Of a DNA stretch of 39,646 nt, positions 1,765 to 31,218 are shown piece after piece. Source of the stretch: Enterobacteria phage IME10; the sequence record JN600960.1; one strand, written 5' to 3'. The notes beneath the pieces were generated by a model that had not been told where the DNA came from, made no database searches, and worked only from the letters and a program-made list of their open reading frames with translations. How positions within the stretch are numbered: the first letter of the stretch is position 1; each line of letters starts with the position of its first letter. Both the position numbers and the translations under genes were made by a program.

Positions 1765-2465
1765 TGGTTGATTCATCACTGAATGATCCTGTTGTGGTTC
1801 AGGCTACGCGCCTTGATGCTTCAATTTTGCCACGCAATATATTCAGCCAGTCTTACCTACTATATGTCATAAATCAGGGAGCTGATGTCGGTGCAATTGC
1901 TGGGAAGGCAAATCAGGCTGGCCAGGGCGCTTACGATGCTCAGGTGAAAAACGATGAACAGGACGTCGAACTGGCAGATCACGATGCAAGAATCACCGCA
2001 AACACAAAAGCGATAAATCTCCTTGAGGTCAGGTTAACAACTGCCGAAGGGAAGATAGTCGTACTGCGTAGCGATGTTGATTACTTGCTGGATGAGGTTA
2101 TCGATATTCAGGCGCATCTGGTCACTGTTGACCAAAGACTGGATGACGTAGAAAACGATGTCTCTGGCATTAAGAGTGATTACGTATCGAAAACCGTAAC
2201 AGAATCGCAGTCTCTTGCGTCACCGCTGGATGTAAAAACATCATATTCAGTTGATGGAATTCAGGTCGTTGGAGCAAGGCAGACCGGATGGACAGCGGCC
2301 ACAGGCACACCACTTCTTGGCTCATTCAACGCTAACCAGTCATACACGGTCGGCACTACGTACACACAATCCGAAGTCGCAGCTCTCGCTACAGGTTTGC
2401 AGCAGGCGCGGCAGCGTATTCTGGCGCTTGAAACAGCACTTAGATTACATGGGCTGATTGACTGA
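1764..2465 (+). CDS. Tail needle protein gp26
   Basis: 233 aa ORF, ATGA-type start overlap with gp10, coiled-coil-like middle, P22 gp26 length and position. Confidence 0.8.
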
Positions 2466-2920
2466 TGATTACATTCAAACCAACGCGAAACATCGACCTG
2501 ATAGAAGCAGTCGGAAATCACCCTGACATTATTGCCGGGAGCAACAACGGTGATGGATACGACTACAAGCCTGAATGCCGTTACTTTGAGGTTAACGTGC
2601 ACGGTCAGTTTGGCGGCATTGTTTACTATCAGGAGATTCAGCCGCTGACATTCGATTGCCACGCCATGTACCTGCCAGAGATTCGCGGCTTCAGCAAGGA
2701 AATCGGGCTGGCGTTCTGGCGATACATTCTGACTAACACCACCGTTCAGTGCGTCACATCGTTCGCTGCGCGCAAATTCCGCCACGGTCAGATGTACTGC
2801 GCAATGATTGGCCTTAAGCGTGTAGGAACCATCAAGAAATACTTCAAAGGCGTGGATGACGTGACGTTTTACAGCGCCACACGCGAAGAACTAATCGAAT
2901 TCCTGAATCACGGGAGATAG
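2465..2920 (+). CDS. Head assembly / ejection-associated protein gp14
   Basis: 151 aa ORF in the P22 gene 14 position, overlapping start with gp26 stop. Confidence 0.7.
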   Translation: MITFKPTRNIDLIEAVGNHPDIIAGSNNGDGYDYKPECRYFEVNVHGQFGGIVYYQEIQPLTFDCHAMYLPEIRGFSKEIGLAFWRYILTNTTVQCVTSFAARKFRHGQMYCAMIGLKRVGTIKKYFKGVDDVTFYSATREELIEFLNHGR

Positions 2921-2922
2921 CC

Positions 2923-3615
2923 ATGTTATATGCATTTAAGCTGGGCAGAAAACTGCGCGGCGAGGAACCTTATTGCCCTGAAAAAGGCGGGAAAGGTGGC
3001 AGCTCTGATAAAAGCGCAAAGTATGCAGCAGAAGCTCAGAAGTATGCCGCAGACCTGCAAAATCAGCAGTGGCAGACGATCATGAAAAACCTTGCTCCGT
3101 TCACGCCTCTTGCGGAGCAGTATGTTAACCAGCTTCAGAACCTTTCCAGTTTAGAAGGTCAGGGGCAGGCACTTAATCAGTATTACAACTCTCAGCAGTA
3201 TAAAGACCTTGCAGGTCAGGCTCGTTACCAGAGTCTTGCTGCTGCGGAGGCGACGGGGGGACTTGGTTCGACAGCCACAAGCAATCAACTGGCTACGATC
3301 GCGCCGACTCTCGGTCAGTCTTGGTTATCAAACCAGATGAGCAATTACAACAATCTGGCAAACGTTGGTCTTGGTGCTCTGCAAGGTCAGGCAAACGCTG
3401 GGCAGACATACGCCAACAACATGAGCAGCATTGCACAGCAAAGTGCAGCACTTGCCGCTGCTAATGCCAATAAACCATCAAGTCTTCAGACTGCAATTAG
3501 CGGTGGCACGTCTGGTGCGATTGCCGGTGCAGGTCTTGCCAGTCTTTTGGGAACATCAACGCCTTGGGGCGCTGGCATTGGTGCTGGTATCGGATTGCTT
3601 GGCTCGTTGTTTTAA
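2923..3615 (+). CDS. Ejection (internal virion) protein gp7
   Basis: 230 aa ORF with Gln/Ala/Gly-rich low-complexity C-terminus, P22 gp7 length and position. Confidence 0.75.
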   Translation: MLYAFKLGRKLRGEEPYCPEKGGKGGSSDKSAKYAAEAQKYAADLQNQQWQTIMKNLAPFTPLAEQYVNQLQNLSSLEGQGQALNQYYNSQQYKDLAGQARYQSLAAAEATGGLGSTATSNQLATIAPTLGQSWLSNQMSNYNNLANVGLGALQGQANAGQTYANNMSSIAQQSAALAAANANKPSSLQTAISGGTSGAIAGAGLASLLGTSTPWGAGIGAGIGLLGSLF

Positions 3616-3624
3616 GGGGTAATC

Positions 3625-4956
3625 ATGGCTACTTGGCAAGGAACAAACGGCGGATTGTTGGCTGGTATCGGCGGCGTCAACTCAAACGCTCCGAGCGTAA
3701 ATGACATCGGCAATACGCTTCAGCTTATCAGGCAGAACAATGATATTGAGCGTTCAGGCGCTAACAATGTTGGGCTGACTGCTTTGCAAGGCCTTTCAGG
3801 TATTGCGGGGGTGTTTCAGCAGGAAAAGCAGGCTCAGCGGCAGAAAGAATTTCAGCAGGCATACGCTAATGCTTATGCGTCTGGTGATCGCGGTGCTTTG
3901 CGTCAGTTGGCTACTCAATATCCAGACCAGATTGAATCCGTTCGTAAAGGCATGGGATTCATTGATGAAGAGCAGCGTAATTCTATCGGCACCTTAGCAG
4001 CTGGCGCACGCCTTGCGTCATCGTCTCCAGAAGCAATGCAATCATGGCTGCAAAACAACGCCGGTGAGTTAGATCGTGTTGGCGTTAATCCTCATGACGT
4101 CGCTCAGATGTACCAACAGAACCCGCGGCAGTTCGGCGAATTTGTCGATCACCTGGGGATGAACAGTCTCGGGCCCGAAAAATACTTTGACCTACAGGAT
4201 AAAATGCAGGGTCGCCAGGTTACCATGCGCGGTCAGGATCTGGATTCGCAAACCGCCGCTCGGAATCAGGCAATCACAATGCGCGGACAAGATATCCAGG
4301 CGGATTTAGGTCAGCAGCGCATTAATCTGGACGCAGAAACAAACCGCATTAACAACGAAAATAAGCGCCTTGACCGGATGCTATCAGCAGAAACTAACGA
4401 CCTGAAGCGCCAGGAAATACAGAGCCGCATAGCAGCCAACAACCAGCAGTTGCAGCAGAAGCAGCAAGCGCTAAATGATGGCTACAAAGACGGCATCAAC
4501 ACCCTCACAACCAGCATGTTCACTCTGAACGATATCGTTAGTTCTCCTTCACTTAAGAGCATTACAGGCTTACGTGGAGTAATCCCCAACGTTCCAGGCT
4601 CACAGGCTGCAGACACTCAGGCACGACTTGATACCTTTAAATCACAAGCATACCTGACAGCGGTTCAGGCCATGCGAGGCATGGGCGCACTTTCTGATGC
4701 CGAGGGCAAAAAGCTCGACCAGGCTGTTGGTTCGCTGCAGAACTCGCAGAGCGAGGAGTCCTTTCGTCGCAACGCTGGCGTCATCCTGAACACGCTCAAC
4801 CAGAAGCGTAATGAGGCGGTTGGTAAGTACGTTCAGCAAAACGGTATCAAGCGAGTGGAAGCGCCTCAGGCTTCTATAGATTACCTGAAGCAGCACCCCG
4901 AGCTGTCAATCGACTTCATTAATCGCTACGGATATCTTCCATCTTTGGGGCAGTAA
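3625..4956 (+). CDS. Ejection protein gp20
   Basis: 443 aa ORF between gp7 and gp16 homologs, coiled-coil-rich. Confidence 0.7.
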   Translation: MATWQGTNGGLLAGIGGVNSNAPSVNDIGNTLQLIRQNNDIERSGANNVGLTALQGLSGIAGVFQQEKQAQRQKEFQQAYANAYASGDRGALRQLATQYPDQIESVRKGMGFIDEEQRNSIGTLAAGARLASSSPEAMQSWLQNNAGELDRVGVNPHDVAQMYQQNPRQFGEFVDHLGMNSLGPEKYFDLQDKMQGRQVTMRGQDLDSQTAARNQAITMRGQDIQADLGQQRINLDAETNRINNENKRLDRMLSAETNDLKRQEIQSRIAANNQQLQQKQQALNDGYKDGINTLTTSMFTLNDIVSSPSLKSITGLRGVIPNVPGSQAADTQARLDTFKSQAYLTAVQAMRGMGALSDAEGKKLDQAVGSLQNSQSEESFRRNAGVILNTLNQKRNEAVGKYVQQNGIKRVEAPQASIDYLKQHPELSIDFINRYGYLPSLGQ

Positions 4957-7350
4957 ATGGCTAATTACCGTGATTTGTTAGAGCAGGCTGGCGCACGTTA
5001 CGGTGTGCCAGAAGGGTTGATGACTGCACTGGGTGCCAAGGAGTCTTCTTACAACCCTGCCGCAGTAAGCTCCGCCGGGGCTGTAGGATTGACTCAGGTC
5101 ATGCCTGGGACATGGCGTGATATGGGTTATACCGATGAGCAAATGCAAAACCCCGAATATCAGGCTGACGCTGGCGCGCGCTATCTGGCAAAGATGTACC
5201 AGCAGTTTGGTAACTGGCGTGACGCTCTTCAGGCTTATCACGACGGTCCCGGCAACGTTATGAAGGCAAAGCGTGGTGAATATACGCCAGGACCTGAAGG
5301 CCGCGGTTACGTTGATGATCGCTTTGCTCAATGGGCGGGTGACCCGGTGACAGACTCAACAGTCGAACAGCGCGCCACCTCTGCAAAGGTACATCCTCAG
5401 CAAGACCCTAACAACCCGTTTGCACAACTGGAAGCACAGTCATCCGAACAAGTATCGGCATCAGGCGTGCAGTCAGACCCAAATAATCCATTTGCTCAGA
5501 TTGAGCAGCAGGCAGCCAGTCAGCAGCCACCTCAACCCGTAAGTTCTGTCGCACCGAAACCTGTTCAGCAGCAAGGCGGAATAATGTCTGACCTTGGTAA
5601 TGGACTTGCTGAAACCGGGCGCGGCTTACTACAGGCAGGAATCAACGTAGCGAACATACCTGCTGAACTCACTGATGCTGTAACAAGCGCGGCGGCTTGG
5701 GCTGGCGGTAAACTCGGCATTGGCGATGGTACATATCAACCAGCGCCACGAGTAACAACGCAGGGATTAGAGCAGGACTTTGGCCTTCAGCAAGGCGCGC
5801 TGACTCCACAAACGACAGAGGGCAGGGTGTTTGCTGAAGCATTGCCTTACCTCACTCCTGCTGGCGTTGAGAGAGCGGCAGCACAGGCACCAACACTTGC
5901 TGGTCGAATTGCTCAGGGGGCAACTCGCCTTCTAGCAGAAAACGCAGTTGGATCACTTGCTGAAAATAGTGCGAAAGATGATGCGGAAGCACTCGCCACC
6001 GATTTAGGCGTTGGTGTGCTGGCTGGCGGTGCTATTAACGCTGCCGGACGTGGATTAGGTGCTGCTTATCGTGGCGTTCGTGGTGCTATTGCGCCAGAAG
6101 CGCAGCAGGCTATCAGATTTGCAGAGCGTGAAGGAGTTCCTCTGCACACCACAGACCTGTTACAGCCTACTTCCCGGGTCGGAAAAATGGCGCAGACTAC
6201 AGCAGAAAATATCCCTCTGGCTGGCACAAGCGGAATGAGAGCAACGCAACAGGAAGCGAGAAGCCAGTTGGTGCAGAGATTTGCTGATAAATTCGGCGAG
6301 TACGATCCGGCAGTTGTTATTGACAGCCTTAAAGCGAAAACATCAGGAATTCGTCGTGCTGCAGGGAGCCGTCTTGAGCAGGTTCAGAATGCAATGGCGG
6401 GAGTCAATATACAGCCTGCGCGAGCAATTCAGCAGATTGATACTGAGATATCTAATCTGCAGAAGCTTGGTAAGGTAGCTGATAACGAGACAATTTCAAA
6501 ACTTCAGTCATATCGTGATGAGCTTGTTCGCAATGCTGGCCCTGATGGTCCGGTAAATCTGGATTTGAAGCAATTAAGCGACCTGCGCAGCCAGTTCAGA
6601 ATGGACGTGAAGGGTGAGCGACCAGTGTTACCAAACCGTTCCGATGCCGCCATTCAGCGCGTTTACAAGGCAATGACTGACGATATCAATGGTGCCATTG
6701 GTCAGAATCTTGGCAACGATACTCTCCGTAAATATCAGCAGGCCAATGCCGTCTATGCTGACGAAGCGGCGAAACTAAAGAATACCAGGCTGAAGAATGT
6801 TCTCATGAAAGGCGACCTGACGCCGGAAGTTGTCAACAACATGCTATTCAGCAAGAACAAATCGGAAATTAAGACGCTGTATAACTCAGTTGGTCGCGTT
6901 GGCAGGGCGCAAATGCGCAATGGCATCATTGGAAAGGCGATGGAGAAATCAGGTGGTTCCCCTGACCAGTTCCTTCGGCAGCTTAATATTCTGCAAAACC
7001 AGACTGGCATCACATTTAAGGGGCAGGACGCTGCTTATCTGAAAGGATTAAAAAACTACCTGCAATCCACGCAGCAGGCAGCAAAAGCGGCAGTAACAAC
7101 ACCAACAGGGCAGCAAACCATCCCGTTTATTATCGGGTATGGGACGGCAATGAACCCGGCGACAACTGGCGCAGCAGTAAGCTACGGACTTCTTACTCGC
7201 GCCTATGAGAGCGAGCCATTCAGAAATGCAATGCTCCGAATGGCAAACACCCCACGCGGTTCAACAGCGTTTGAGAAAGCCATGCAGCAGGCACAAAAGG
7301 CAATTAACGCTATGACGCAGGGGGCTAAGTCTGATGCGTTGTCAGAATAG
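4957..7350 (+). CDS. Ejection protein gp16-like with N-terminal soluble lytic transglycosylase domain
   Basis: 797 aa; N-terminus has SLT-like motifs (GAKESSYNPAAVSSAGAVGLTQVMPGTW); position of P22 gene 16 but longer than my recollection of P22 gp16. Confidence 0.75.
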   Translation: MANYRDLLEQAGARYGVPEGLMTALGAKESSYNPAAVSSAGAVGLTQVMPGTWRDMGYTDEQMQNPEYQADAGARYLAKMYQQFGNWRDALQAYHDGPGNVMKAKRGEYTPGPEGRGYVDDRFAQWAGDPVTDSTVEQRATSAKVHPQQDPNNPFAQLEAQSSEQVSASGVQSDPNNPFAQIEQQAASQQPPQPVSSVAPKPVQQQGGIMSDLGNGLAETGRGLLQAGINVANIPAELTDAVTSAAAWAGGKLGIGDGTYQPAPRVTTQGLEQDFGLQQGALTPQTTEGRVFAEALPYLTPAGVERAAAQAPTLAGRIAQGATRLLAENAVGSLAENSAKDDAEALATDLGVGVLAGGAINAAGRGLGAAYRGVRGAIAPEAQQAIRFAEREGVPLHTTDLLQPTSRVGKMAQTTAENIPLAGTSGMRATQQEARSQLVQRFADKFGEYDPAVVIDSLKAKTSGIRRAAGSRLEQVQNAMAGVNIQPARAIQQIDTEISNLQKLGKVADNETISKLQSYRDELVRNAGPDGPVNLDLKQLSDLRSQFRMDVKGERPVLPNRSDAAIQRVYKAMTDDINGAIGQNLGNDTLRKYQQANAVYADEAAKLKNTRLKNVLMKGDLTPEVVNNMLFSKNKSEIKTLYNSVGRVGRAQMRNGIIGKAMEKSGGSPDQFLRQLNILQNQTGITFKGQDAAYLKGLKNYLQSTQQAAKAAVTTPTGQQTIPFIIGYGTAMNPATTGAAVSYGLLTRAYESEPFRNAMLRMANTPRGSTAFEKAMQQAQKAINAMTQGAKSDALSE

Positions 7351-7439
7351 CTTTTCAAACACCAGGAACGTGCAAAAACCAAATATGTAGAACGCAATAT
7401 TCAGCATATCTCTTTGCATAAATCCTCCGTAACTGATGG

Positions 7440-7773: not shown

Positions 7774-7796
7774 ATGCAATCACATCATGATTGCAT
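7774..7796. promoter_or_regulatory. Candidate Mnt operator: perfect 9-bp inverted repeat ATGCAATCA-N5-TGATTGCAT
   Basis: Palindrome read directly in the mnt-tailspike intergenic region, about 25 bp upstream of the tailspike start. Confidence 0.4.
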
Positions 7797-7821
7797 CATA
7801 TCATTCGTCTGGAGCAATGAA

Positions 7822-9642
7822 ATGTCAGATATCACCGCAAATGTTGTGGTAAGCATGCCTTCGCAACTATTCACTATGGCGCGTTCTTTTAAAGCCGTAG
7901 CCAATGGAAAAATTTATATCGGTAAAATTGACACTGACCCGGTAAATCCTGAAAACCAGATTCAGGTTTATGTGGAAAACGAAGACGGTTCTCACGTTCC
8001 TGTTGCACAGCCAATCATCATTAACGCTGCTGGTTACCCTGTATATAATGGACAGATTGCCAAATTCGTAACTGTGCAAGGCCATTCGATGGCTGTATAC
8101 GATGCGTATGGTGTGCAGCAGTTTTATTACCCGAATGTGCTGAAGTATGACCCTGATCAGTTGGAGCAACGATTGTCTTCACCTGGTGGCGCAGTGTATA
8201 TAGGTGGCGTTGGTGGTGGAAATTTATCCCAAATAATAAATGCGGTATCTCCAGAACAGTTCGGAGCAGTAGGAGACGGATTCACTGATGATATTGAAGC
8301 TCTCGATGCTTGCATGGCTTTTGCGAGAGAAAAACCATTAGACATTATATTTAGTAAGACATACGCAATTTCACGTCCTTATGTTATTTACATGGGAAAT
8401 AAAAAAAATCCTCGCCATATTGGTCAAGGGTCCATGGCGAAAATAATATTAACCACAACAACAAAATCTGGATTGGGTAGTGACTCATACGGTACTGATT
8501 TGAATGTAAACGCAGCTGTTATTGTAGCCGCGATCACAGGTACAGGGCATAACCAACAACCCCAGAACTTTCGGTGGGAAAACATTGACCTTGACACCAC
8601 TGTAGATGCAGATTACGGCATGTACACGTCAAAAATGCAGTCCGCGGCAGTCAGTAATTTCAGGACGTATAATTTCAAGACAGGTATTCAGGATAACGGT
8701 TCCTGGAATACGTTGTATGAAAACATTAAGATGTCTGCCCACTCCACCGTAGGTTTCCGTAAAAATGCTGGTACTAGTACTACTATCCGTAACTGTTACG
8801 TAGAGAAATCGAAAGTTGGTTATCGTGTTTACAGCGGATACTCTCAGATTGAAGGGTGTGCATGCGACACTAGCACTGATGTCTCGTATTGGATTGAAGG
8901 TAACCCAGTAGCTTTAAGTAGTGACAGCACGTTTTCTCTTGTGTCATGTGGCGCAGAGAATTCAGGGACGGCCGTGGTACGAATTACTGGGACACTAACA
9001 GCAAGTATTATCAACTTTCAATCATTTAATTGGTCACAACAGCAAGACCCGACACCAGATTGTTTCTTAGATATTCAGTCCAACACTGCTAGCATTTCAG
9101 TTGAAGAGGTCAGATATCTTGGTGTTGCTCGCAGGATAAAAGACACTGGAACAAACAACACAGTTATCATAAGAAATATGACGACTCGTGGTACAGATGT
9201 TAGAGATCAGGATACCTATCCAAATAGCACTAGAATTATTGAGCTTAATCATAACGGTGTGCGAGTAGCGACAGGTTACGATAAAAATGGGATTTTGATC
9301 ACTGAAGATAATATGACCGATTCAATCGGAAGTACTACATGGTCAAGGCTATTTAACAAACAAAAAATTTGGCGCTATAGGGGTATAGTAACAAGAACAA
9401 GCGGTCAGAGTTACGGAAGGTTACAGATCAATATTCCGTTCACTATGGCTGATAATAGTTATAGCGTTGCTATTACACCAGAAGTGTATCACACCGATAT
9501 GGCAACATATGGTTACCAATGTTCAGTAGGCCCAACTGATAAAACAACAACATCATTCTTCATCAACGTAAACTCTGGAACAGGTAACACGTCATGGAAC
9601 AGTATAGCTGTTGACGTAATTGTGATGGGGCTTTCTATCTAA
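7822..9642 (+). CDS. Tailspike protein: P22-type N-terminal head-binding domain plus a different beta-helix receptor-binding domain
   Basis: Start [11 protein letters not shown] with GGAG RBS 7 nt upstream; first ~115 aa closely resemble the P22 gp9 N-terminus as recalled; remainder differs and contains the [11 protein letters not shown] motif typical of pectate-lyase-like beta-helix depolymerases. Confidence 0.85.
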
Positions 9643-9886: not shown

Positions 9887-11353
9887 ATGAGAAATATGAA
9901 ATTACTCTCAAAAAGACTAGTGGTAATTGTATGTTCTGTATTTATCCTTTCAATTATATTGTGCATACATTTAAGAAAGGGAAACTTTAACCTCAATAAT
10001 ATAAGTAGCGTACAAAATGCTAATGACATATCAACAACCAATAGTATATTGAATGATGATTTAGTGTTTTCCGAAAGATATGATTCCCTTTTTTATTACT
10101 TCGTGCATTCGTTTGTTAAATATTCTTCAGATGATTATGCTCTTGTTAATTATCCTGGGATGCTATCGACGAGTGGGAATAAGACAAACCAAGTTGAGGG
10201 TACGGCAAGGACGCTACCATTAATTGCTGCATGGGTTTATTCTGGAAGAGATTCAACCATTATCGTTAATGGTAATAAGTTAAATATAGTAGATCTGATT
10301 AGGAGTAGTATATTGTCTGGAACTAATCCAAGTTCTGTAAACTATTGGGGGGATATACATGATTATGATCAGAGAATTTTAGAGGCCGCAGATATAGTAA
10401 GAGTCTTATGGCTTACAAAAAAAGAGATATGGAATCACTTAAAAGATAATGAAAAAAATCAGATAGCTTTGTGGCTGGAGCAAGCTGCATCGGCGAAAAC
10501 TGTAAAAAACAATTGGCTACTAGCTCCATTCATAATTCAGAATTTTTTGCAGGATAATGGATATACAGTTAAGGTTAATTACAAAAATTACACAGACTTT
10601 AAGAAAAACTATCTTGAACACGGATGGTTTAGAGATGGAAATGATGGAGAAGTAGATTTCTATAATACTTGGGGTATATCCTATGACTTATTCTGGATAT
10701 CACTTATTACAGATTATGATAATGCTTTTATACTAAAAACACTATCTGAGTCGGCTGATTTCACTTCACATTTAATATCTAAAAATGGCATCCCGCTTGT
10801 TGGTAGAAGTATTTGCTACAGGACTGCAGCACCCACACCTGTTCTAATTGAAGGTCTATTAAAAAATGATGGATATCATCAAGGTTTAGCAAAATCAGCA
10901 TTAGACTATACGTGGAAATATTTTGCAAGCCACAATGCATTAGTATCAGATACATTATCAATGGGGTATTTTAATAATGACAAGCGCTTTGTTGATAATT
11001 ATAGCGGGTCAGGAAGTTGCCTGTGGGGAATAAGGTCGTTAGTTGTCGCTTATATGAATGATAAAAAATCATATATCTGGAATGGGAAATATGAGAGATT
11101 GCCTATTGATAATTCTGATTTCATTATCAATGCAGATAAACTTGGTTGGATAGTTGAGGGTAATAAAGATAGTGGAGAGATAAGGGTTATTATACCTGCA
11201 AACGAAAAAAACTCACCAAAGATAAATGATACCAATAAACTTAAAGAAGTTATATGGAGAGTTCTTGGTAAAGCAGGAAGAACTAATCAACATGACATTG
11301 AGTACCTAAAGCCATATTACTCATCACTAGAGCCTATATCTGACGTTGAGTGA
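9887..11353 (+). CDS. AT-rich cargo gene: membrane-anchored protein of unknown function (N-terminal TM helix, ~450 aa extracytoplasmic domain)
   Basis: 488 aa ORF with visibly lower GC than flanks; hydrophobic N-terminal segment LVVIVCSVFILSIILCI; sits between tailspike and attP/int, the classical lysogenic-conversion slot of P22-like phages. Confidence 0.6.
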   Translation: MRNMKLLSKRLVVIVCSVFILSIILCIHLRKGNFNLNNISSVQNANDISTTNSILNDDLVFSERYDSLFYYFVHSFVKYSSDDYALVNYPGMLSTSGNKTNQVEGTARTLPLIAAWVYSGRDSTIIVNGNKLNIVDLIRSSILSGTNPSSVNYWGDIHDYDQRILEAADIVRVLWLTKKEIWNHLKDNEKNQIALWLEQAASAKTVKNNWLLAPFIIQNFLQDNGYTVKVNYKNYTDFKKNYLEHGWFRDGNDGEVDFYNTWGISYDLFWISLITDYDNAFILKTLSESADFTSHLISKNGIPLVGRSICYRTAAPTPVLIEGLLKNDGYHQGLAKSALDYTWKYFASHNALVSDTLSMGYFNNDKRFVDNYSGSGSCLWGIRSLVVAYMNDKKSYIWNGKYERLPIDNSDFIINADKLGWIVEGNKDSGEIRVIIPANEKNSPKINDTNKLKEVIWRVLGKAGRTNQHDIEYLKPYYSSLEPISDVE

Positions 11354-30000: not shown

Positions 30001-30324
30001 ATGAAGATGCCAGAAAAACATGACCTGTTAGCCGCCATTCTCGCGGCAAAGGAACAAGGCATCGGGGCAATCCTTGCGTTTGCAATGGCGTACCTTCGCG
30101 GCAGATATAATGGCGGTGCGTTTACAAAAACAGTAATCGACGCAACGATGTGCGCCATTATCGCCTGGTTCATTCGTGACCTTCTCGACTTCGCCGGACT
30201 AAGTAGCAATCTCGCTTATATAACGAGCGTGTTCATCGGCTACATCGGTACTGACTCGATTGGTTCGCTTATCAAACGCTTCGCTGCTAAAAAAGCCGGA
30301 GTAGAAGATGGTGGAAATCAATAA
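30001..30324 (+). CDS. S: Holin S (dual-start MKM motif: antiholin/holin)
   Basis: 107 aa class I holin, lambda S-like; Met1-Lys2-Met3 dual start. Confidence 0.9.
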
Positions 30325-30784
30325 TCAACGTAAGGCGTTCCTCGATATGCTGGCGTGGTCAGAGGGAACTGATAACGGACGACAGAAAACCAGAAATCAT
30401 GGTTATGACGTCATTGTTGGCGGAGAGCTATTCACTGATTACTCCGATCACCCTCGCAAACTTGTCACGCTAAACCCAAAACTCAAATCAACAGCCGCCG
30501 GACGTTACCAGCTTCTTTCCCGTTGGTGGGATGCCTATCGTAAGCAGCTTGGCCTGAAAGACTTCTCTCCCAAAAGCCAGGACGCTGTGGCACTGCAACA
30601 GATTAAAGAGCGTGGCGCTTTACCGATGATTGACCGCGGTGATATTCGTCAGGCAATCGACCGTTGCAGCAATATCTGGGCTTCACTTCCGGGGGCTGGT
30701 TATGGCCAGTTCGAGCATAAGGCTGACAGCCTGATTGCAAAATTCAAAGAAGCAGGCGGAACGGTCAGAGAGATTGATGTATGA
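30308..30784 (+). CDS. R: Endolysin R (lytic transglycosylase)
   Basis: 158 aa, lambda R-like ([24 protein letters not shown]). Confidence 0.9.
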
Positions 30785-31218
30785 GCAGAGTCACCGCGAT
30801 TATCTCCGCTCTGGTTATCTGCATCATCGTCTGCCTGTCATGGGCTGTTAATCATTACCGTGATAACGCCATGACCTACAAAGAACAGCGCGACAAAGCC
30901 ACATCCATCATCGCTGACATGCAGAAGCATCAACGTGATGTAGCAGAACTCGACGCAAGATACACAAAGGAGCTTGCTGATGCTAACGCGACTATCGAAA
31001 GCCTCCGTGCTGATGTTTCTGCTGGTCGTAAGCGCCTGCAAGTCGCCGCCACCTGTGCAAAGTCAACGACCGGAGCCAGCGGCATGGGCCATGGAGAAAG
31101 CCCAAGACTTACAGCAGATGCTGAACTCAATTATTACCGTCTCCGAAGTGGAATCGACAGGATAACCGCGCAGGTTAACTACCTGCAGGAGTACATCAGG
31201 ACGCAATGCCTGAAATAA
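30781..31218 (+). CDS. Rz: Spanin inner-membrane subunit Rz
   Basis: N-terminal TM anchor and coiled-coil; the N-terminal third is lambda-like, the C-terminal part diverges. Confidence 0.85.
30974..31165 (+). CDS. Rz1: Spanin outer-membrane lipoprotein Rz1, embedded in Rz in the +1 frame
   Basis: Embedded ORF with lipobox LVVSAC and a Pro-rich mature region. Confidence 0.7.

Follow-up and report, generated by a model that had tools for sequence, protein, structure and literature searches.

A lytic transglycosylase head and a duplicated peptide on the gp16-like ejection protein of phage IME10, and a candidate contact with the gp20 C-terminal tail

Results

The third ejection-protein gene of IME10 encodes a composite gp16-like protein

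We analysed the gene at the gp16 position of Enterobacteria phage IME10 (sequence record JN600960.1), whose 39,646 nucleotides are referred to below as the window. The window is a complete, circularly permuted P22/Sf6-like (Lederbergvirus, Sf6-like) genome, in which a gp10-like gene, two open reading frames (ORFs), a gp7-like gene, a gp20-like gene, the ORF at 4957..7350, an mnt-like gene and the tailspike gene follow each other in this order. The TAA of the gp20-like gene abuts the ATG of the gp16-position gene, both being in the same frame. The 797-amino-acid (aa) product can be divided into an N-terminal soluble lytic transglycosylase (SLT) domain, a tether that carries two copies of a short peptide, and a body of the Sf6 gp13 type (Table 1). 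Our reading of the whole composite is that of a third ejection (E) protein which combines an SLT enzyme, a tether with two docking peptides and an Sf6-type body, and we give it a probability of roughly 0.5.

Table 1. Features of the ejection-protein region and of the other genes discussed. Conservation is the mean column conservation across 85 distinct N-terminal (head) modules.
Feature	Position	Strand	Remarks
gp7-like ejection protein gene, 230 aa	2923..3615	+	PF25688 P22_gp7, E = 1.8e-134, full length; PHROG 598; opens the ejection-protein operon
gp20-like ejection protein gene, 443 aa	3625..4956	+	PF16928 Inj_translocase, E = 9e-68, aa 10-225; PHROG 2534, E = 2.6e-194
Mosaic cassette relative to Sf6: gp20 C-terminal half and gp16 N-terminal module	4162..5568	+	blastn; inherited as one unit
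gp20-like C-terminal tail, 33 residues, VEAPQASIDYLKQHPELSIDFINRYGYLPSLGQ	4855..4953	+	proposed receptor of the gp16 motifs
gp16-position ejection protein gene, 797 aa	4957..7350 (including stop)	+	ATG start
SLT, lysozyme-like domain, aa 1-128	4957..5340	+	PF01464; Slt70 phmmer match; AlphaFold; Foldseek; conservation 0.94
Glu29-Ser30 codons, predicted catalytic acid and partner	5041..5046	+	gap-free alignment with Slt70 Glu478-Ser479
Q-R-A-T-S-A segment, aa 138-143, between enzyme domain and motif copy 1	5369..5386	+	conserved
Motif copy 1, DPNNPFAQLE, aa 150-159	5404..5433	+	conservation 0.94
Spacer, 14 residues, AQSSEQVSASGVQS	5434..5475	+	conservation 0.66; length kept, sequence free
Motif copy 2, DPNNPFAQIE, aa 174-183	5476..5505	+	conservation 0.97
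Gln/Pro-rich linker, aa 184-207	5506..5577	+	conservation 0.69; pLDDT <50
Sf6 gp13-type body, aa 208-797	5578..7347	+	~94-95% DNA identity to Sf6 gene 13; PHROG 770
Mnt/Arc-like repressor gene, 97 aa	7440..7733	-	Arc-like ribbon-helix-helix domain and Mnt C-terminal domain
Tailspike gene	7774..9642		P22 head-binding domain
Holin gene	30001..30324		lysis cassette (whole cassette 30001..31218)
Endolysin gene	30308..30784		PHROG 90, E = 2e-63; lysis cassette
Rz gene	30781..31218		lysis cassette

An initial annotation, made from the letters of the sequence, had proposed a gp16-like ejection protein that is longer than P22 gp16. Both points were borne out. The gene order gp7-gp20-ORF and the match of residues 108-797 to PHROG 770 ('DNA transfer protein', E = 3.5e-238) agree with the assignment, as does the last 1.8 kb, which is ~94-95% identical in DNA to Sf6 gene 13 and ~74% identical to P22-like Salmonella phages; P22 gp16 and Sf6 gp13 have 609 and 665 aa, respectively (PMC8954989). 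The start of the body is common to Sf6 gp13 and P22-type proteins, with the consensus GG(I/F)MSDLG..ETGRGL.QAG.N.ANIP. An AlphaFold model predicts a mostly helical body, with moderate confidence for aa 470-700 only. A Gly/Ala-rich hydrophobic stretch at aa 342-370 (Kyte-Doolittle 1.36) is the sole hint of an association with the inner membrane.

The N-terminal domain is a predicted lytic transglycosylase

The initial annotation had also read the N-terminus as an SLT-like module, and a profile search agreed with it: PF01464 matches residues 7-110 (E = 2.9e-25; 88.6 bits against a gathering score of 21.3) over profile positions 2-110 of 117. phmmer matched the domain to Slt70 (1qsa) with E = 4.8e-10. 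For aa 1-110, AlphaFold predicts a lysozyme-like, all-helical fold at a predicted local distance difference test score (pLDDT) of 87-97, and Foldseek returned a probability of 1.00 for Slt70 (1qte), Slt (5ohu/6fbt), LtgA, MltE and MltC, the best matches being Slt70 and Slt; the N-terminal chain of T7 gp16 (7k5c_B) appeared at rank 45.

The predicted catalytic dyad Glu-Ser is intact. Residues E29, S30, G44, Q47, Y94 and G97 are invariant in an alignment of 98 sequences, and the first two are also invariant in an alignment with the gp16 proteins of T7, PP81 and RSB2. Both signature motifs of the family are present as G44-L45-T46-Q47 (G-L-M-Q) and A93-Y94-H95-D96-G97 (A-Y-N-x-G), with substitutions at variable positions, namely Thr for Met in the former and His-Asp for Asn-x in the latter. 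Because the same phage encodes a separate holin-endolysin-Rz cassette, the domain would be an entry enzyme rather than a lysis enzyme. An entry role is established for the transglycosylase of T7 gp16, which is needed when peptidoglycan is highly cross-linked (PMC8954989). Sequence, structural model and this analogy together make it very probable that the domain is a lytic transglycosylase acting at entry.

The domain might alternatively be a non-catalytic structural 'wing' or a peptidoglycan-binding anchor of the conduit. The N-terminal domains of T7 gp16 form wings on the gp15 tube and their activity is dispensable in standard conditions (PMC8954989), and the two deviating signature motifs would fit such a part as well. 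However, prophages from several genera retain the catalytic Glu-Ser pair and every position that is invariant in the family, which is not expected of a purely structural element. We therefore consider a wing or anchor improbable, and a working enzyme remains the preferred reading of the head.

The fusion of an SLT domain to a gp16-type body is of a known kind, is already annotated in databases and is ordinary. The same gene, ~98% identical over its full length, occurs in 52 of 5426 complete Escherichia coli genomes, where the NCBI pipeline names it 'lytic transglycosylase domain-containing protein', and Klebsiella phage phiKp_30 (BEI45442) has the same 797-aa architecture. Relatives that are 72-86% identical were found in prophages of Cronobacter, Klebsiella aerogenes, Kosakonia and Enterobacter. 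These full-length relatives came from an exhaustive search of representatives and from tblastn, while word-indexed searches, with the 215-aa head or a five-sequence profile, yielded only fragments and generic SLT proteins. Casjens and Thuman-Commike reportedly may have mentioned transglycosylase heads on some gp16 types in 2011.

The transglycosylase name is also given in public records to 665-aa Sf6-type gp16 proteins that lack an SLT domain, such as those of Salmonella phage VSe13 (QOI68465; locus L004, 1222-3219) and of the clusters P0399 and P0401, with 1304 and 2252 members. A Pfam scan of Sf6 gp13 found no domain of any kind. Since the body is shared, the name seems to have spread from SLT-bearing relatives. 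The Sf6-type gp16 body further occurs in chimeras (P0398, P0400, the 782-aa P0402, the 776-aa P0396 and the 798-aa P0393), where its fusion partner is the N-terminal part of gp7, a fibre-like segment or an N-terminal segment that is basic, rich in Cys and has the precomputed Pfam assignment PF05766. These proteins are probably deletion scars in decaying prophages.

A duplicated decapeptide in the tether is as conserved as the enzyme

Two copies of a DPNNPFAQ(L/I)E decapeptide were said by the initial annotation to follow the enzymatic domain. Both are present; copy 1 lies exactly where it had been placed, and copy 2 lies one base downstream of the earlier position (5475-5504). A synonymous divergence of the two copies had also been claimed and was found: they are identical in 9 of 10 residues but in only 21 of 30 bases, and of the nine residues that they share, seven are encoded by different codons. 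With nine of 30 bases differing and codons changed under most shared residues, the duplication must be old and the peptide maintained. When the 797-aa protein was shuffled 2000 times, no shuffle contained two 10-mers that agree at nine of ten positions, and a six-frame scan of the window for N-x-F-[AD]-[QE]-[FLIYVM] found these two copies only.

The further suggestion that the decapeptide is a conserved functional motif gained support from 85 distinct N-terminal modules, across which both copies are as conserved as the catalytic domain while the spacer and the linker drift (Table 1). Residues N153 and F155 of copy 1 are invariant in comparison with distant relatives. The spacer is variable in relatives, with sequences such as SQATGNPVEPHVQD and SQASAQSAPSSVQS, and the linker behind copy 2 is where recombination has joined the head module to the body and where relatives have taken up an extra domain. 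Upstream of copy 1, positions Q138, A140, T141 and A143 of the Q-R-A-T-S-A segment are invariant against Kosakonia, Klebsiella and Escherichia relatives at 49-54% identity, and AlphaFold predicts a helix at 133-143 (pLDDT ~76). AlphaFold models of the head alone and of the whole protein both give low confidence to aa 131-225 and place short, low-confidence helices that start at or beside the Phe of each copy (F155; ~178-188). A low-confidence region with short helices is the usual picture of a linear motif in a flexible tether.

The motif is older than the SLT domain and independent of it

The motif recurs in virulent relatives, among them Murrayvirus IME_EC2, Sortsnevirus IME279, Skarprettervirus and Kosakonia phages, whose gp16-position protein has ~1000 aa and an SLT domain 55-63% identical to that of IME10. 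In these, copy 1 sits at the extreme N-terminus (MANPFAQFADP, MANFFDQFDQN) and copy 2 follows the SLT domain (SNNPFAQFSDG, GNFFDQFDEA), whereas in P22-like prophages both copies lie behind it. Relatives thus retain two copies, or three in the case of the representative P0151, despite the changed position. Two copies from one protein are more similar than two taken from different proteins (3.46 versus 2.11 of four variable positions alike; 0 of 10,000 permutations as high), although the test is weakened by some of the proteins being close relatives. Other SLT-bearing representatives have, in place of the motif, two G-P-W-x-x-Y peptides or a P22-type mini-domain before the SLT domain.

Domains other than SLT are also found beside the motif. 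In the downstream ORF of one environmental locus (L125), a glucosaminidase domain (aa 37-150; PF01832, E = 1.3e-15) lies between the motif copies, at the spot taken by SLT in virulent coliphages (group B); an unrelated wall hydrolase seems to have been inserted there independently. A domain of ~100 residues that has no Pfam match (consensus GNIDIHNRP.VKN.DGSISTVRS.S.NIDG.EVLIPTVSDDGRIMSDDEAID...GKHLG.F) follows both copies, within the linker, in some Klebsiella/Cronobacter-type proteins (L055, 6001-8661; P0388, aa 184-290), and lies between the copies in the downstream ORF (aa 17-105) of the environmental loci L141 and L143. Judged from these arrangements, the motif is older than the SLT domain and independent of it.

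The head of gp16 and the C-terminal half of gp20 are inherited as one cassette

In blastn comparisons with Sf6, the window aligns at ~94-96% over 2465-4161 and 5569-7420, and between these blocks only 122 nucleotides (4591-4712) align, at 71%. Compared with Sf101, 2447-5574 is 97.9% identical and the sequence is then divergent until the mnt gene. From these breakpoints, the exchangeable unit comprises the C-terminal 265 residues of gp20 and the first 205 of gp16. Its right joint falls in the Gln/Pro-rich linker, just past the second decapeptide, where identity to Sf101 ends (5574) and identity to Sf6 starts (5569).

The two halves of the cassette travel together. Among the complete E. coli genomes that hold any of it, 66 of 71 cover both the gp20 C-half and the SLT head, and all six records (five phages, Sf101 being present twice) in the phage collection that have the gp20 C-half at an identity of at least 97% also have the SLT head. 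At 61 IMG/VR loci found with the head, identity of the gp20 C-half (74-100%) tracks that of the SLT head (80-100%), while the gp20 N-half (43-99%) and the gp16 body (at least three types) vary freely.

The gp20 C-terminal tail and the double motif predict each other

The cassette contains the 33-residue C-terminal tail of gp20. In the virulent relatives gp20 ends ...AQAAINYLMQNPTPSVKAQFKEKYGFLPEGL, the rest of its C-half being only 22-29% identical. We scanned for the association in both directions. A search of IMG/VR with the tail alone gave 30 divergent loci, which come from many metagenomes and match the tail at 45-64% identity. Each of the 30 has an ORF that starts between -17 and +94 nucleotides from the stop codon of the tail and carries two N-x-[FY]-D-x-[FY]-D copies, in most cases in tandem at the very N-terminus, as in MANPFDQFDAVAEPSEANPFDQFDQ; none of these 30 downstream ORFs has an SLT domain. 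In the reverse scan with the double motif alone, 562 pattern matches yielded 201 confirmed cases, of which 80 were kept and 79 have a readable upstream ORF. In 78 of the 79 this ORF ends in the same tail family, with the consensus ..PPaaAv..LK.NP.LaaaFDAKYG followed by YLPEG. or AGAA...LG. In the phage collection, tblastn with the 27-aa motif pair found Shewanella phage ZP9 only, whose gp7-gp20-gp16 operon encodes, in this order, a gp7-like protein (PF25688), a 404-aa gp20-like protein ending APQQAIDYLMQNPQFKEQFRAKYGYLPEGV and a 723-aa protein starting MANPFDQFDAQQENPFDQFDSEK.

P22-like phages with other gp20 tails have other gp16 heads. The Sf6-type tail ...SNFSSLWGD (L001) and the P22/BTP1-type tail ...SGIQFTVE (L007) are each found with their own head. 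Phage Gally (L005) has a P22/BTP1-like gp20 C-half whose last ~10 residues are of the Sf6 type, together with an Sf6-type gp16 head, which points to a crossover just before the tail. In the window, an Sf6-type body goes with a non-Sf6 gp20 C-half, so the body cannot be the specificity determinant. As read from their sequences, both recombinants fit a pairing of tail and motif. The two-copy motif is widespread, and its pairing with the gp20 tail appears to be undescribed; a search of the accessible literature for the motif and tail strings gave nothing relevant.

Could the duplication be functionless, merely a repeat in the linker that chance or descent has preserved, and could its association with the gp20 tail be a mere effect of conserved gene order among related phages? 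The region is rich in Gln, Pro and Ser and predicted to be disordered, and tail and motif are adjacent in the DNA, which makes linkage unavoidable. A functionless repeat, however, should not have columns as conserved as those of the catalytic domain next to linker columns that are not, nor should nine of ten residues persist when synonymous sites between the copies are near saturation. Likewise, the copy number is kept while the position relative to inserted domains shifts, and tail and motif remain well conserved within proteins whose other parts share 22-29% identity or cannot be aligned. We find this explanation unconvincing and give it little weight.

A further possibility is that the motifs bind a host component of the periplasm or inner membrane, such as a protein of the Tol/Pal kind or one of cell-wall synthesis, or else bind the peptidoglycan, and so steer enzyme and conduit to a suitable site. 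The motif is found next to peptidoglycan hydrolase domains that belong to two unrelated families, and in colicins short repeated peptides in disordered translocation domains bind host components. Yet the motif is nearly the same across diverse metagenomes and in phages of Shewanella, Escherichia and Cronobacter, which would call for an equally conserved host partner, and most of its carriers have no hydrolase domain in that protein. Moreover, the partner that co-varies in presence is encoded by the phage. A host target hence appears quite unlikely, and the gp20 tail remains the preferred partner.

Two further observations concern the upstream proteins and the tail itself. Some environmental proteins at the gp20 position are long (620-770 aa; L175, L190, L199, L215) and have wall-hydrolase-like inserts of their own; the upstream ORF of L175 matches PHROG 873 ('endolysin') and PHROG 7182 ('tail injection transglycosylase'), and that of L190 weakly matches peptidase M15. 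Such inserts suggest that the hydrolase module moves between the second and third ejection proteins, and a shift of the hydrolase between gp15-like and gp16-like proteins has been described (PMC8954989). The tail core F-x-x-[KR]-Y-G-x-x-P, for its part, looks like the helix and turn with which SLT domains (A-x-R-Y-G-V-P) and glucosaminidase domains (F-K-A-K-Y-G-A-A-A-E-K-A-G) begin. The sites concerned are window positions 4921-4941 (gp20 F-I-N-R-Y-G-Y) and 4987-5010 (gp16 G-A-R-Y-G-V-P-E) and aa 30-45 of the L125 downstream ORF. This resemblance of the sequences may be due to chance, to mimicry or to a remnant of a split hydrolase.

A model for docking of gp16 onto gp20 tails

Genetic and structural work on related systems bears on this association. 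P22 that carries Sf6 gp16 alone or Sf6 gp20 alone is non-infectious, although Sf6 gp16 is packaged, while both together are functional (PMC10883804). Since Sf6 gp16 is packaged in P22 yet does not function without Sf6 gp20, gp16 and gp20 must interact in a type-specific manner after assembly. The C-terminal 33 residues of P22 gp20 are essential (PMC10883804). In T7, the segment of gp16 that follows the transglycosylase domain stitches the C-terminal regions of gp15 into a hexameric tunnel (PMC8954989). P22 injects ~12 gp16 and ~30 gp20 molecules (PMC8402733), which is close to two gp20 tails per gp16.

We propose the following model. After the E-proteins have left the virion, module 1 (aa 1-128), a family-1 lytic transglycosylase, would open the wall around the trans-periplasmic conduit as it grows, by cutting peptidoglycan strands, an activity that by analogy with the T7 gp16 transglycosylase is probably required only where the wall is highly cross-linked. 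Module 2 (aa 129-207) would be a flexible, acidic tether with two helix-forming peptides, N-P-F-A-Q-[LI]-E, each of which would dock on the conserved C-terminal tail of one gp20-like subunit (...IDYLKQHPELSIDFINRYGYLPSLGQ). At the distal end of the tube, next to the inner membrane, one gp16 could thereby connect the C-termini of two neighbouring gp20 subunits, much as the 'molecular tape' of T7 gp16 does with gp15 C-terminal regions, and this bridge would hold the hydrolase, where there is one, beside the channel. Module 3 (aa 208-797), the Sf6-type body, would act at the inner membrane. For the docking of motif on tail, which draws on sequence associations and on the analogy with T7, we see the chances as nearly even. 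Slightly more tentative is the generalisation to a 'tail-and-head' device, derived from the sequences, in which two N-x-F-D-Q-F-D-type peptides on the third E-protein clamp the ...F-x-x-K-Y-G... tails of two subunits of the second; their interface would set the compatibility of gp16 and gp20 types and would serve as a platform for repeated insertion of SLT or glucosaminidase domains.

The peptides might instead be capsid-targeting or incorporation signals that bind scaffold, portal or coat protein, with gp16 being packed into the procapsid in the way of the T4 internal proteins and their N-terminal capsid-targeting sequence. Many relatives have the motif at the extreme N-terminus right after Met-Ala, the usual place of targeting peptides, and it is short, amphipathic and set in a disordered tether. 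But no other ORF of the window has it, the co-packaged gp7 and gp20 included, so a packaging signal shared among these proteins was rejected after the six-frame search. P22 and Sf6 gp16 lack the motif, yet their procapsids are very similar; the packaging of Sf6 gp16 into non-infectious P22 puts the type-specific step after assembly (PMC10883804); and a targeting role leaves the tight pairing with the gp20 tail unexplained. Among the alternatives this one has slightly more in its favour than the others, although we still think it unlikely.

Several points weigh against docking on the gp20 tail. The model of the whole protein leaves aa 131-225 at pLDDT <50 and docks the motifs nowhere. Tail and motif lie a few bases apart, so that their co-inheritance could reflect linkage or shared ancestry and not contact. 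Seven environmental upstream ORFs that were tested fall below PF16928, and only some match ejection-protein PHROGs; Pfam gave no ejection-protein family for any of the seven, and one has weak peptidase M15 hits below the gathering score. Kosakonia-type phages bear the motif but have a strongly diverged tail, and the apparent charge covariation between the basic residue two before the tail Gly and the acidic motif position 7 comes from very few independent lineages. The likeness to the T7 tape described below is positional, and one aligned Phe plus a PFAK string is weak evidence. For the enzyme part, the substitutions in the two SLT signature motifs belong on the same side.

Comparison with T7 gp16, Sf6 gp13 and other relatives

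The closest functional parallel is T7 gp16 (internal virion protein D; transglycosylase 1-156, 'molecular tape' 157-228). Like the IME10 protein it is encoded by the third gene of a three-gene ejection operon and begins with an SLT-type domain with the same Glu-Ser pair and a structural match (7k5c_B). In both, an extended segment comes after the enzyme domain; a solved T7 structure shows this segment in contact with the tube protein, and a similar contact would apply to IME10 by analogy. The first Phe of the motif aligns with T7 Phe157. In contrast, SLT identity is only ~27%, no similarity was detected past ~aa 190, T7 has no duplicated N-x-F-x-Q-F peptide, and the IME10 body is of the P22/Sf6 type and ~500 aa shorter. 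Homology to the ~1100-aa C-terminal body of T7 gp16 was not found, and P22-like phages are reported to have no core stack (PMC8954989). As the match to PHROG 342 covers aa 3-189 only and the body is Sf6-type, the IME10 protein would work like the N-terminal part of T7 gp16 but stands outside that family. At the start of the tape (aa 153-162), T7 gene 16 (L073, 3596-4400) encodes Q-L-E-T-F-G-G-I, and PP81 has K-L-E-A-F-A-K-L at the same place. The T7 string K-P-F-A-K-D-F (204-210) was considered as a homologue of the motif; it lies in the tape region, but its register differs and the alignment prefers Phe157, so we keep it as a lead only.

Sf6 gp13 and P22 gp16 share the gene position with the IME10 protein, and Sf6 gp13 shares its body as well. 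Sf6 gp13 (665 aa) and the P22-type BTP1 gp16 (655 aa) differ in their unrelated short heads, MAKAWKDVIASPQYQ... and MKVTANGKTFTFPEG..., which have neither an SLT domain nor the double motif; their gp20 partners have the Sf6-type and P22/BTP1-type ends given above. Shigella phage Sf101 gp13 ('transglycosylase', 911 aa) has an identical head (aa 1-206; 99.5% DNA identity) and an identical gp20 C-half, but this head sits on another, longer body of ~700 aa without detectable similarity to that of the window. In Klebsiella phage phiKp_30 the head and the gp20 C-half are identical, and the whole architecture is the same.

E. coli Slt70 and other family-1 lytic transglycosylases (GH23) are the best sequence and structure matches of aa 1-128 and share the Glu-Ser, G-L-x-Q and A-Y-x-x-G elements. 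Unlike Slt70, the IME10 domain is a stand-alone catalytic domain of 128 residues that lacks the superhelical U and L domains; a signal peptide is also absent, and the domain would be delivered by the virion rather than secreted. The environmental podoviruses and Shewanella phage ZP9 resemble IME10 in a gp20-like end of the form ...A-I-D-Y-L-x-x-N-P-x-x-x-x-x-F-x-A-K-Y-G... and in a next protein with two N-x-F-D-Q-F-D copies. They differ in that both copies are at the very N-terminus, 10-20 residues apart and usually without a hydrolase domain, in the consensus F-D-Q-F-D versus F-A-Q-[LI]-E of IME10, and in bodies that mostly cannot be aligned with that of the window.

Genome setting

The nearest phage relatives of the window are Sf6, Huey, N7, HF4s and Sf101, with 95-96% identity over about one third to more than half of the first 25 kb. 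Near its right end are the genes for portal, scaffold and coat protein, and its left end holds the gp10-like gene (PF11134) and two ORFs at the gp26 and gp14 positions. The label of PHROG 2534, matched by the gp20-like protein, reads 'released from the phage upon host infection'. The Mnt/Arc-like repressor gene sits between the gp16 and tailspike genes, an arrangement known from P22 and its immI region. On the other side of the tailspike gene, before the integrase-side region, a 488-aa DUF2264 protein (PF10022, E = 3e-63) is encoded at 9887-11353 on the plus strand, a position often occupied by lysogenic-conversion genes in P22-like phages.

Discussion

The enzyme part of the IME10 protein matters little on its own, as virion-borne transglycosylases are textbook knowledge from T7 gp16 and the fusion is named in hundreds of records. 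It does show that a generalisation in the recent literature, by which P22-like phages have no transglycosylase activity on gp16, is too broad: it is true for the four phages examined there and fails for the IME10 lineage.

More is at stake in the association of motif and tail. Motif and tail are a candidate interface for the mutual recognition of the three E-proteins of P22-like phages and for the assembly of their trans-envelope conduit. Hybrid-phage genetics showed that gp16 and gp20 have to match but did not locate the site of contact; if the docking proposed here is true, it would give a residue-level answer to their recognition. The same gp16/gp20 pair is what exclusion proteins such as SieA act on. 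A pair of peptides of 7-10 residues and a 33-residue tail, kept from coliphages to environmental podoviruses, make a small and directly testable candidate, and their pairing could help in designing hybrid phages and in interpreting the mosaics of E-proteins.

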